46,156 nt of DNA from Promethearchaeia archaeon (GTDB lineage Archaea; Asgardarchaeota; Lokiarchaeia; Sigyniarchaeales; SOKP01). Positions within the stretch are counted from its first letter, which is position 1. Each line of letters starts with the position of its first letter. Positions 6,807 through 10,179 of this stretch are shown one piece after another. A model generated the notes under the pieces. That model made no database searches, was not told the DNA's origin, and saw only the letters and a program-made list of their open reading frames with translations. The stretch covers positions 1 through 46,156 of the forward strand of contig JAHQWJ010000036.1 in NCBI GenBank assembly GCA_029856125.1. Reading direction: 5' to 3'. Position numbers and translations under genes: made by a program.

Positions 6807-7682
6807 ATGGAACAAAACACTACAAAAATACTCTTAGAACAAACGCAATTTAATATCCCCTCCGACACAATCGGTATTGATATTGGGCAAAGTCTCGCGA
6901 AGATTTCTTATCTAAAAGATAACGAAATTATCCTTAAAATAGGAGAGACCAATTTTAAGGAAATAGAGGAATTTCTTGATGAAAATACAAGTAAATTTAA
7001 TAAAATTAATTTTACCGGCGGAAAAGCTTATAAGCTTTATAAAAAATATTCAAACAATATTAGTACTAACCTAATCAACGAATTTGAGGCAAACATAAGA
7101 GGGATAGAATTTCTTTATGAATCTTACAAGAAGAAAACATTACCACCATCTCTTATTGTCACATTAGGTACAGGGACTTCATTAGTCCTAAAGAGAGACA
7201 TTATTGAACACTTGGGTGGATCCGCTATGGGAGGAGGTTTTTTTATGGGACTAATTAAACTAATATTTAATATGGATAAATATTTTGATGCAATCGAATT
7301 AGTTCGAAAGGGGAATCGATTTAACATTGATTTAAAAGTAGCTGACATTTACGATATTGAAGATACCAGAGTTGATAAATTATTTAGAGAATTTACTGCA
7401 GCCTCTTTAGGTAAGATTAAAAAAGATTTTGATACTAAATCGCTAAAAAAAGAAGATTTTATTAGCTCCTTAATTGGAATTATTGGAGAAAATGTTGGAA
7501 CGATTGCTACTCTTATGGCTGAAAATTATAACCTAGAAAAAATCGTTTTTTGCGGAGGGTTTCTACTAGAGAATAAACCGTTAAAACAGATTTTATCACT
7601 ACTCTGTAAAATTAAAAGGAAAAAAGCTATTTTTTTAAAAAATTCAGAATATTGTGGGGCTATAGGAGCTCTAATATTATGA
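6807..7682 (+). CDS. Type II pantothenate kinase (Fumble/CoaW-like)
   Basis: GIDIGQSLAK, FTGGKA, NEFEANIRG, LGTGTS, HLGGSAMGGG, DLKVADIY, AASLGK, GAIGA. Confidence 0.88.
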   Translation: MEQNTTKILLEQTQFNIPSDTIGIDIGQSLAKISYLKDNEIILKIGETNFKEIEEFLDENTSKFNKINFTGGKAYKLYKKYSNNISTNLINEFEANIRGIEFLYESYKKKTLPPSLIVTLGTGTSLVLKRDIIEHLGGSAMGGGFFMGLIKLIFNMDKYFDAIELVRKGNRFNIDLKVADIYDIEDTRVDKLFREFTAASLGKIKKDFDTKSLKKEDFISSLIGIIGENVGTIATLMAENYNLEKIVFCGGFLLENKPLKQILSLLCKIKRKKAIFLKNSEYCGAIGALIL

Positions 7683-7793: not shown

Positions 7794-9335
7794 TTATAAT
7801 TTTCGCTTCTTATATGCTACAAGTCCGATTATACTAACAGCTATAAACAATAGGTAAAAATTCCCGAAAGGAATCCCTCCAGGGCCACTAACAACAGGAG
7901 GAACAGGTATAGCAAAGTTTGTATGCATTATTTCATAATCTGTACCCCACACACCATTAGTAGCATCTTCCCAGACCACGTGAACTTGGTTTGTACTACT
8001 AGCGATCGCGGGGTCGCTGCTAGAATCATCGTTCCAGTAGACACCACTAAAACCGTCTGAGAGTATAGTTATATTTGACCACTTGTTTATCTTTGTGAAA
8101 TTGACATACATTATTTCGGTATCTATGCCCCATACACCGTCAGTTTCATCGTACCATACTATATGAACTGAGTCGCTACTATCAACAGCGATTGCGGGGT
8201 TCCAACTAAATTCATCATTCCAATAACTGCTATTATATCCGTCAGAGATTACGGTGGCATTAGACCATCCTAAATCAGACGTAAAATAAGCATACATTAT
8301 TTCTGTATCTATACCCCACAACCCGTCAGTATAATCTTCCCAAACTATGTGGACATTATCGCTACTATCAACAGCTATTGCGGGATCGTAACTACTTCCA
8401 TCGTTCCAGTAACTGCCATTATAACCATCCGAGATTACGGTGGCATTAGACCATCCTGTTGCGGTTGTGTATTTAGCATACATTATTTCGGTATCTGTCC
8501 CCCACACACCATTAGTATCATCACGCCATGCTACATGAACAGCGTTGTTACTGTCAATAGCGATTGTGGGATAGAAACTATTGTCATCGTTCCAGTAAAC
8601 ACCACTATAGCCGTCTGAAATTAAAGTAGCATTAGACCAACCTGTTGCGGTTGTATATGTAGCGTACAATATTTCGCCATCTGTCCCCCACATACCGTAA
8701 GTATAATCGTACCATACTACGTAAACTTTGTCGTTACTATCAGTAGCGATTACGGGGTGATAACTATTTCCAACGTTCCAGTAACTACTATCATAACCAT
8801 CTGAAATTAAGGTGGCATTAGACCATCCTGTTGCGGCTGTATATGTAGCGTACCATATTTCGTAATCTGCCCCCCAGTCACCGTCAGTTCCATCGTACCA
8901 TACTACATGAACTTGATCACTACTATCAACAGCGATTGCGGGGTTATAACTATGTCCATCGTTCCAGTAACTGCCATTATAACCATCCGAGATTACGGTG
9001 GCATTAGACCATCCTGTTGCGGCTGTATATGTAGCATACATGATTTCGGTATCAAATCCCCACACACCGTCAGTAACATCTTCCCAAACTGCGTGAACTT
9101 TATCGCTACTATCAACAGCTATTGCGGGATCGAAACTACTTCCATCGTTCCAGTAACTACTATTAAACCCATCAGAAACCACAGTAGCGTTAGAAAAATC
9201 CACCGCACTTGATTTAAGATCGTAATTATTATAAGTGCTAGAAGAAGCTATTGTAGGATTTAATGCAACTGCTAAGATTCCACAGAAGAAAAATAGAAAT
9301 ATTAAAACATATATTATCGAAGATTTTTTTTTCAT
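7794..9335 (-). CDS. Cell-surface seven-repeat beta-propeller protein with signal peptide and C-terminal membrane anchor (Loki-CTERM/PGF-CTERM-like)
   Basis: MKKK plus hydrophobic signal; 7 x ~62-aa repeats WSNATxISDG..YWND..S..PAIAVDS...H.VW.D.T.G.WG.D.EIMY; Pro/Gly linker; IPFG-TM-KKRKL tail. Confidence 0.85.
   Translation of the reverse strand: MKKKSSIIYVLIFLFFFCGILAVALNPTIASSSTYNNYDLKSSAVDFSNATVVSDGFNSSYWNDGSSFDPAIAVDSSDKVHAVWEDVTDGVWGFDTEIMYATYTAATGWSNATVISDGYNGSYWNDGHSYNPAIAVDSSDQVHVVWYDGTDGDWGADYEIWYATYTAATGWSNATLISDGYDSSYWNVGNSYHPVIATDSNDKVYVVWYDYTYGMWGTDGEILYATYTTATGWSNATLISDGYSGVYWNDDNSFYPTIAIDSNNAVHVAWRDDTNGVWGTDTEIMYAKYTTATGWSNATVISDGYNGSYWNDGSSYDPAIAVDSSDNVHIVWEDYTDGLWGIDTEIMYAYFTSDLGWSNATVISDGYNSSYWNDEFSWNPAIAVDSSDSVHIVWYDETDGVWGIDTEIMYVNFTKINKWSNITILSDGFSGVYWNDDSSSDPAIASSTNQVHVVWEDATNGVWGTDYEIMHTNFAIPVPPVVSGPGGIPFGNFYLLFIAVSIIGLVAYKKRKL
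7915..9195 (-). repeat. Seven intragenic tandem repeats with ~186-bp period
   Basis: Identical 68-nt block at 8397-8464 and 8955-9022 (offset 558 = 3 x 186); repeats visible in the protein. Confidence 0.92.
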
Positions 9336-9434
9336 TATTTTTTTAACCCTTTAAAATTTAGAATACTGATAAAGAAAGAATATTCATATTTAAATCAATT
9401 TAGTTAAGAAGAAATAATTAGGCTTAAGATAAAG

Positions 9435-9509
9435 CGTGCCCATGGGAGATATTTACTCATCGATTTTTAGTCCTAAAACTACTCTCGTAAATACACTATA
9501 ATGGGCACA
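9435..9509 (-). ncRNA. Candidate H/ACA-like pseudouridylation guide sRNA with K-turn (predicted target LSU rRNA helix 69, U1911 E. coli numbering)
   Basis: Minus strand reads UGUGCCCAU-UAUAGU-GUAUUUAC-GA-GAGUAG-UUUUA-GGAC-UAAAA-AUC-GAU-GA-GUAAAUAU-CUCCC-AUGGGCACG: 9-bp lower stem, bipartite pocket, 8-bp upper stem, tandem GA pairs with 3-nt bulge; no ACA box. Confidence 0.6.
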
Positions 9510-9530: not shown

Positions 9531-9538
9531 TTTAAATA
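9531..9538 (-). promoter_or_regulatory. Putative TATA box for the candidate sRNA
   Basis: TATTTAAA on the minus strand, 22-29 nt upstream of the hairpin 5' end and overlapping the phi stop codon; AT-rich background weakens this. Confidence 0.35.
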
Positions 9539-10179
9539 GTCTCTGAGTGTTTTCTTAACATATCTTCGTTCGTTTTTCCCATTTTAATTGCGAGCTCAGC
9601 GATTATGGCATCCAAATATACGAAAGCAGCTATCTCGAACATAGTTCCTTCAGGAGTAAGAATTGCGGTATCGTCGTGAAGATCGACCTTATCTCTTTTA
9701 GTACGACCCTTCAGCTTTATAGTAATATCAGCAACTCTCCCTATAATAGTCTCGGGATGGGAAGTAATTGAAATTATACCAGATGGTTTAGCTGTATTCA
9801 CATAATTTTTGAGAAGACTTACCACGATCGAGGTTGTTCCCGATCCAGACAAAACTATTAAAACATCCTCGTTTGTTAGCGCAGGTATTGACCCTAAATT
9901 AGTAACCATATAAACATCTGCTCCTAGGTGGACCAGCCTTGTCGCAAAGCATTGTAAAATAAAAGCAGAGCGCCCACTTGCTAATAGGAAGAATTTTCTC
10001 TTCTTTACTAACCCATCGTAGACCATGTCGATAAATTTCTTAGTATGTGAAAAATGTTTAGTTTTGCTTAAATGTTCCATGTTGTCTCGAAGGTTTCCAA
10101 GTATCACATCCATAGATTGAAATAAAATCTCTCTTTCTTTTCCATTAAGCTTCTGTTCACTACTAACTTTATCAGCCAT
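9532..10179 (-). CDS. hxlB: 6-phospho-3-hexuloisomerase (SIS domain)
   Basis: SGRSAFILQCFATRLVHLG, DVLIVLSGSGTT, PEGTMFE, C-terminal MLRKH. Confidence 0.85.
   Translation of the reverse strand: MADKVSSEQKLNGKEREILFQSMDVILGNLRDNMEHLSKTKHFSHTKKFIDMVYDGLVKKRKFFLLASGRSAFILQCFATRLVHLGADVYMVTNLGSIPALTNEDVLIVLSGSGTTSIVVSLLKNYVNTAKPSGIISITSHPETIIGRVADITIKLKGRTKRDKVDLHDDTAILTPEGTMFEIAAFVYLDAIIAELAIKMGKTNEDMLRKHSETI

Follow-up and report, generated by a model that had tools for sequence, protein, structure and literature searches.

The locus and the hairpin

The window, by which we mean the whole 46,156-nt stretch of DNA analysed here, carries on its minus strand a single hairpin with a kink-turn (K-turn), hereafter the H69 hairpin, between two protein genes of the same strand (Table 1). 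Upstream lies a gene for a SIS-domain sugar isomerase; on the other side, a 513-aa gene separates the hairpin from a Fumble/PanK gene (6807-7682). The PanK gene abuts the hairpin directly in many relatives, and the 513-aa gene therefore looks like a lineage-specific insertion.

Table 1. Features of the H69 hairpin and its surroundings, in coordinates of the window.
Feature	Position	Strand	Remarks
SIS-domain sugar isomerase gene	9532..10179	minus	Upstream neighbour, not part of the RNA; Pfam SIS, E 5.5e-9
TATA-like box TATTTAAA	9531..9538	minus	22-29 nt upstream of the hairpin; overlaps last codons and stop of the SIS gene
H69 hairpin (predicted guide RNA)	9509-9435	minus	~75-85 nt, single hairpin
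Lower stem P1, 5′ strand	9501..9509	minus	9 nt; 9 bp with 9443-9435, outermost pair U.G
5′ guide strand of pocket	9495..9500	minus	6 nt; 7 Watson-Crick pairs in 81/82 loci
Upper (GA) stem, 5′ strand	9485..9494	minus	8 bp (9494-9487) plus K-turn GA (9486-9485), making 10 layers
K-turn canonical stem (G-C closing pair) and variable apical hairpin	9462..9484	minus	
K-turn 3-nt bulge GAU (9461-9459) and second GA (9458-9457)	9457..9461	minus	Predicted L7Ae site
Upper stem, 3′ strand	9449..9456	minus	Partner of 9494-9487
3′ guide strand of pocket	9444..9448	minus	5 nt; 5 bp with helix 69 bases 5′ of U1911
Lower stem P1, 3′ strand	9435..9443	minus	End is 14 nt from pocket top
Lost-ACA position, now CUUU	9431..9434	minus	Invariant in 10/10 close relatives
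513-aa gene	7794-9335	minus	Other neighbour; no Pfam match

All elements of the minus-strand K-turn hairpin drawn in a preliminary description of this DNA were found in place, and the coordinates of the parts were checked by script. The CUU that it had reported instead of ACA at ~14 nt occupies 9434-9432, exactly 14 nt past the top of the pocket, and the box that it had seen 22-29 nt upstream corresponds to TATTTAAA at 9538-9531. CUUU is possibly the start of a U-rich 3′ end of the RNA. The minus-strand fold has z = -3.87, with 0/200 shuffles equally stable; the plus strand folds too (z -3.58), so that folding alone does not assign the strand. With ten layers between the pocket and the distal G.A, a 3′ guide of 5 nt and 9 bp in its lower stem, the hairpin falls into the 10/5/9 class, a productive archaeal H/ACA fold class of Toffano-Nioche et al. 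(PMC4652768); a ten-layer upper stem occurred in 14/15 productive Pyrococcus folds (PMC4652768).

An A/T box occupies the same place upstream of the hairpin in 10/10 close relatives. In seven of the ten, ~70 nt separate the SIS stop codon from the guide stem downstream of it, and the position of the box is thus independent of the stop codon. TATTTAAA is the probable promoter of the RNA itself; a sigma-70 promoter scan is not applicable to this locus. Contigs of relatives from three metatranscriptomes (depth 2-7), which carry neither strand nor end information, cover the hairpin and run past it.

Conservation of the family and complementarity to helix 69

The preliminary description had proposed Rfam and covariation searches, and conservation of pocket and K-turn in relatives, as checks. 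At gathering score, no Rfam family matched the hairpin in the window, and ACA-bearing family members searched at E up to 5 returned chance miRNA matches only. A covariance model built from ten close copies matched 107 of 131 other genomes of the family (Promethearchaeota/Loki), nearly always in single copy, and a broader model together with a pocket pattern added guides in two more families of the order. Both pocket and K-turn proved conserved across the family, and its stems covary. In ~118 genomes outside the order, model R2 gave no convincing match; as the pocket pattern did find one there, this null result reflects a limit of sensitivity. In one genome (G047) the RNA occurs twice, as ACA-less copies that differ slightly and lie on different contigs (L047 on C6, L245 on C129), the result of either a duplication or a mixture of strains.

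Across 10 same-genus genomes, 59 of 75 columns were invariant in the core, compared with 15/51 in the upstream and 4/41 in the downstream flank. Among 82 distinct homologues, both sides change in 19 of 24 pairs, and 93% of cells pair vs 34-53% in slid controls, in an alignment that was fitted to the model and hence leans towards the structure. In P1, seven of nine pairs change on both sides, with 100% pairing in the 10 close relatives. While the stems covary, the pocket strands are nearly invariant across the 82 sequences. The G-C pair beside the K-turn bulge is kept in 81/82 homologues; the UGA side of the K-turn is present in 82/82 loci, as the parser required it, and its 5′ GA position reads GA, AA or UA in 63, 12 and 7 loci respectively. 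One sheared G.A pair of the K-turn is thus often replaced in otherwise canonical guides of the family. The apical hairpin varies in length about two-fold and more.

Within the host genome, the H69 hairpin ranked joint first among 1,130 K-turn-like stems, and the tying match has no comparable lower stem. Loose H/ACA descriptors produced thousands of chance matches there, which makes pocket complementarity weak evidence unless it is accompanied by conservation. Four descriptor scans and a search with RF00064, which found nothing, revealed no convincing further H/ACA guide in this genome.

Two recurring features were seen 3′ of guides in other genera. All six g17 genomes examined (L216, L218, L220-L223) have an AAA or AUA box followed immediately by a conserved GC-rich hairpin with a GGGAGCC-type arm and its complement, which was not observed in other genera and may protect the 3′ end or be a second element. 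Many g12 and some g1/g16 loci (e.g. L190-L201, L226-L244) show a GCNCCAAUNGC-like motif and then a GCACAAA-like one, 15-35 nt 3′ of the ACA; this composite motif may belong to the next gene as a separate conserved element, or be a further RNA.

The host assembly contains 16S rRNA and lacks 23S rRNA, and 23S sequences of the same genus were used in its place. In four genomes of this genus (G007, G008, G016 and G020), all carriers of the same ACA-less pocket, helix 69 and the pocket are exactly complementary. The 5′ guide strand and the U that precedes it form seven Watson-Crick pairs with helix 69 bases 3′ of U1911-A1912 (E. coli numbers), the 3′ guide strand forms five on the other side, and U1911-A1912 stays unpaired. 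The match to helix 69 and the unpaired UA of Psi-N geometry, which the preliminary description had derived from the general consensus, thus hold in 23S rRNA of four same-genus pocket carriers. U1911 was identified by alignment with a bacterial helix 69 (L020), the unpaired U being the loop-closing U1911 of E. coli. L020 itself, a 23S helix 69 of bacterial type that was assigned to an Asgard MAG (G014:C263), is probably contamination. The 23S rRNA of G007 (L182) has, in domain V near helices 89-91, a G at about E. coli A2448 in the peptidyl-transferase-ring motif and a ~30-nt insertion in the helix 91 region, both by approximate numbering.

Among ~1,000 uridines of 16S and 23S rRNA, this was the best bipartite site, with 12 pairs compared with 7 for the next best, and none of 3000 shuffled pockets found a perfect rRNA site. 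The target sequence is absent elsewhere in the assembled host genome. The 3′ guide duplex has 5 pairs (-8.5 kcal/mol) vs 4 pairs (-5.1 kcal/mol) in most ACA-bearing relatives. Guide-target covariation was observed once, in one distant Asgard genome (G157), where a U-to-C change in the guide is matched by an A-to-G change in the target; this guide may have arisen by convergence instead of common descent. A second guide role for the apical segment, whose sequence resembles a complement of the region around U1917, found no support: its bases are taken up by the K-turn and the apical stems, and it lacks conservation in the family.

The preliminary description had also taken a pseudouridine at the U1911 equivalent to be conserved in archaea, and this found no support: the archaeal helix-69 sites given in the studies consulted lie in the loop or 3′ of it (PMC7075261, PMC11077068, PMC2377435). 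Specifically, guide targets are 1940/1942 in Haloferax (PMC7075261), 2016 in P. abyssi (PMC2377435), and U2060, given as E. coli 1917, and U2066 in S. islandicus (PMC11077068). E. coli and human rRNA have a documented Psi at the position equivalent to 1911, and in models of both it is the sole helix-69 Psi that stabilises the hairpin, by 0.6-1.1 kcal/mol (PMC3973299). No guide for an archaeal Psi1911 was found in the archaeal H/ACA literature searched, and our literature searches, which were incomplete, yielded no paper on Asgard H/ACA RNAs and no Psi map of a Loki ribosome.

Absence of the ACA box

Parsing of 82 loci, a chosen rather than random sample, gave 57 with ACA and 8 with another ANA at 14-16 nt (65 together), 3 with ACA at 12-13 nt and 14 with none. 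The host's ACA-less state is common to 17 of the 38 same-genus genomes with a match, and no locus of this subclade has an ANA at 12-17 nt. Fifteen of its genomes could be placed on a Cbf5 tree, where they form one branch (support 94/88). A tree forcing G058 to group with them was rejected (p-AU 2e-7); G058 and G087 are a second, separate ACA-less lineage. Genus g14 and the families f2 and f4 also contain box-less copies beside ACA-bearing relatives, and the taxonomic placement of these copies suggests further losses.

At the end of the stem, relatives read (CA)3 followed by CUU, and the ACA-less clade reads (CA)2 followed by CUUU; in 10 of its 17 genomes, including the host, the last A is now a G that still pairs with the 5′ U. 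Aligned in this way, the box was probably lost through slippage of one CA unit in (CA)3, followed by an A-to-G change in part of the clade. An ACA in a shifted register, 11 nt from the pocket and inside the lower stem, was ruled out: it reads ACG in 10/17 clade genomes, and its base varies as part of a U.G/U-A pair. Pocket and lower stem are 96-100% identical among ten clade members vs ~60-66% for the flanks, two upper-stem pairs have been swapped between U-A and C-G inside the clade, and the host genome has no ACA-bearing paralogue that we could find. Selection on the hairpin continued after the box was gone. We read its absence as a recent, repeated loss within a canonical family. In this respect the 'non-canonical Asgard pseudouridylation guide' of the preliminary description stands as to the type of guide and fails as an Asgard trait, since 65 of the 82 loci have ACA or ANA at 14-16 nt, and in most family members the ACA stands exactly 14 nt past the pocket.

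Neither the protein nor the pocket offered a clear compensation. Cbf5 of the 17 ACA-less genomes is 82-94% identical to that of the host, whose PUA motifs match those of ACA-bearing relatives and Pyrococcus. Co-evolution of Cbf5 with the loss was rejected, as a single conservative column differs (A286V, in the PUA region). The fifth pocket pair is a weak candidate for compensation, because five-pair pockets also occur with ACA or AAA (g17, f4, G157) and some ACA-less loci have only four pairs. The Cbf5 match in G057 (L273) was listed with one TAG inside it; the translated stops fall at the C-terminal end, and the TAG is probably just the end of the gene.

Loss of the box needs no new mechanism, given two precedents. 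A natural non-ANA box, CCA, is found in a Pyrobaculum calidifontis guide (PMC4652768), and a Haloferax single stem-loop guide produced Psi in vivo with ACA changed to UGU and in vitro with ACA deleted, a dispensability that holds for a typical unpaired UN pocket up to 17 nt (PMC7075261). Since removal of the ACA in Haloferax also made the reaction slower and left no Cbf5 binding in EMSA (PMC7075261), the activity of an ACA-less guide may be reduced. Guides that have neither stem nor ACA work with ordinary Cbf5 (PMC11077068).

The known guides closest to the H69 hairpin are the canonical single-hairpin H/ACA sRNAs, i.e. Pab91, Pab160/Pf9 and Pab21 of Pyrococcus, sR201/sR202 of Pyrobaculum and sR115/sR435 of S. 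islandicus (PMC2377435, PMC4652768, PMC11077068). It shares with them the lower stem, the bipartite UN pocket, the 10-layer GA stem with K-turn and the 14-nt spacing, and differs in that the host copy has no ANA box and that its 1911 target is outside those listed in these studies. The family shows every testable canonical archaeal H/ACA feature; the host copy, which has the stem-pocket-stem order (7-9 bp lower stem), the K-turn at 10 layers, the bipartite UN complementarity and the protein genes, lacks, of these testable features, the ACA only. The atypical guides sR203-210 of Pyrobaculum and sR109, sR136, sR148 and sR563 of S. islandicus are functional and likewise combine a K-turn with the absence of ACA (PMC4652768, PMC11077068). 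They have no lower stem, however, whereas the H69 hairpin keeps a perfect 9-bp stem under selection. By its predicted structure, the host RNA is intermediate between the canonical and the atypical class. sR148 also aims at helix 69, but uses one guide strand and addresses the 1917 equivalent and a downstream site (PMC11077068). The engineered ACA-less SL1 of Haloferax volcanii sR-h45 has the same architecture and is active in vivo (PMC7075261), yet is a laboratory mutant rather than a natural allele, and SL2 of this RNA, which directs Psi1940/1942 in helix 69, differs in its two loop uridines, its atypical UNUN pocket and its need for ACA (PMC7075261). Motif 3 of Pab40/Pf7/Afu4 (HgcG, RF00064) is, like the H69 hairpin, an H/ACA motif for 23S helix 69, but belongs to a three-hairpin RNA, and its target, P. 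abyssi 2016, is a terminal-loop site (PMC2377435).

A predicted guide for U1911 and its alternatives

Very probably, the H69 hairpin is a genuine guide RNA for one uridine of helix 69, so far uncatalogued, in Asgard archaea of the Loki type. The K-turn guide of H/ACA type put forward in the preliminary description is supported by the 10/5/9 geometry, the conservation in the family and the unique match to helix 69. We consider it likely, from the comparison of sequences, that the RNA is a stand-alone single-hairpin pseudouridylation guide, that it descends from a canonical H/ACA ancestor whose ACA was lost, and that it targets U1911.

The host genome, which is 99% complete, encodes the proteins that such a guide would need: Nop10, two proteins of the L7Ae/L30e family, and a Cbf5 (E 4e-105 against that of Pyrococcus) in which the catalytic motif GTLDP is present and the PUA domain is normal. 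A Gar1 candidate scored just under the Pfam cut-off (E 1.3e-5), and Gar1 is probably present. In the proposed mechanism, transcription would start near 9509, directed by the TATA box at 9538-9531. By analogy with known RNPs, L7Ae would bind the K-turn, and Nop10 and Cbf5 would sit on the 10-layer upper and the 9-bp lower stem. The pocket would then pair through 7+5 bases with helix 69, opened up in the pre-23S rRNA, and U1911-A1912 would stay free beneath the upper stem; for this step, complementarity, conservation and the one guide-target covariation speak. Cbf5 would turn U1911 into pseudouridine, and Gar1 would help release. Where ACA is missing, only the lower stem and L7Ae/Nop10 would hold Cbf5, which is plausible because this suffices for a typical UN pocket at the same spacing in Haloferax.

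The same position is modified elsewhere by other means. Bacteria make Psi1911 with RluD, a stand-alone enzyme, and no RluA/RluD-family synthase for this bacterial route was found in the 99% complete host assembly. The human H/ACA guide for this position, which we take to be SNORA23/ACA23, is a two-hairpin snoRNA without a K-turn.

The box that most of the family kept is the defining element bound by Cbf5, its removal abolished Cbf5 binding in EMSA (PMC7075261), and the single Cbf5 column in which the clades differ (A286V) offers no clear compensation by the protein. Each of these points would suit a family that truly guides Psi1911 and a subclade copy that has been weakened or inactive since the loss. 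This is very unlikely in view of a pocket and lower stem that are essentially invariant in 17 genomes while the flanks fall to ~60% identity, of the two compensatory pair swaps within the clade, and of the presence in the host of a sole copy that no ACA-bearing paralogue replaces. Catalysis as such might be denied instead: an L7Ae RNP that binds helix 69 as a folding chaperone during 50S assembly, without modifying it, would leave the same pairing and conservation, which are all the evidence there is, and the longer 3′ duplex of the ACA-less clade would suit it. We give this little credence, because catalysis by Cbf5 is what constrains the exact UN gap, the ten layers of the GA stem and, in relatives, the 14-nt distance to the ACA (PMC4652768), and archaeal non-modifying sRNPs of this kind are not known (PMC8339473).

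The gene order raises another reading, in which the hairpin is a cis-acting 3′ element of the SIS mRNA, bound by L7Ae for stability or acting in termination, and its rRNA match a coincidence. In every family-f1 locus with ORFs listed, the SIS gene lies directly upstream on the same strand, and in the host the TATA-like box overlaps its stop codon. Yet the invariant part of the hairpin is the unpaired pocket with its unique match to helix 69, the f2 and f4 homologues and the G157 guide have other neighbours, and an ACA at 14 nt would have no role in such an element, which we therefore regard as highly improbable. Processing of the guide from the SIS transcript could occur and is compatible with the guide interpretation. 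In the K-turn core of a SECIS, the 5′ strand has AUGA and the 3′ strand GA, and the element stands behind a gene with an in-frame UGA. A eukaryote-type SECIS of Lokiarchaeia was rejected here, since the polarity is reversed (AUGA on the 3′ strand) and the SIS reading frame is uninterrupted down to its TAA.

Read as a guide, the H69 RNA reveals no new mechanism. It represents an uncatalogued, well-supported sRNA family for Asgard archaea, found in >110 genomes, and is a natural counterpart to the laboratory result that ACA is dispensable for a typical single-hairpin guide. Searches that require ACA will miss such archaeal members. It seems fairly likely that a third natural architecture, which retains the lower stem, dispenses with the ACA and works with unmodified Cbf5, has evolved repeatedly in Loki archaea. 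The wider proposal, in which this architecture is joined to an Asgard Psi1911 made by a dedicated guide ancestral to the eukaryotic guide of the same site, is improbable, and a link of ancestry is unlikely to be provable from such short sequences. The family predicts Psi1911 in intersubunit bridge B2a, which is directly checkable in cultured Promethearchaeota. Within one genus, ACA-bearing and ACA-less natural alleles share the same target and a near-identical Cbf5, and such alleles may be a first step from canonical guides towards the stem-less atypical guides of Crenarchaea.
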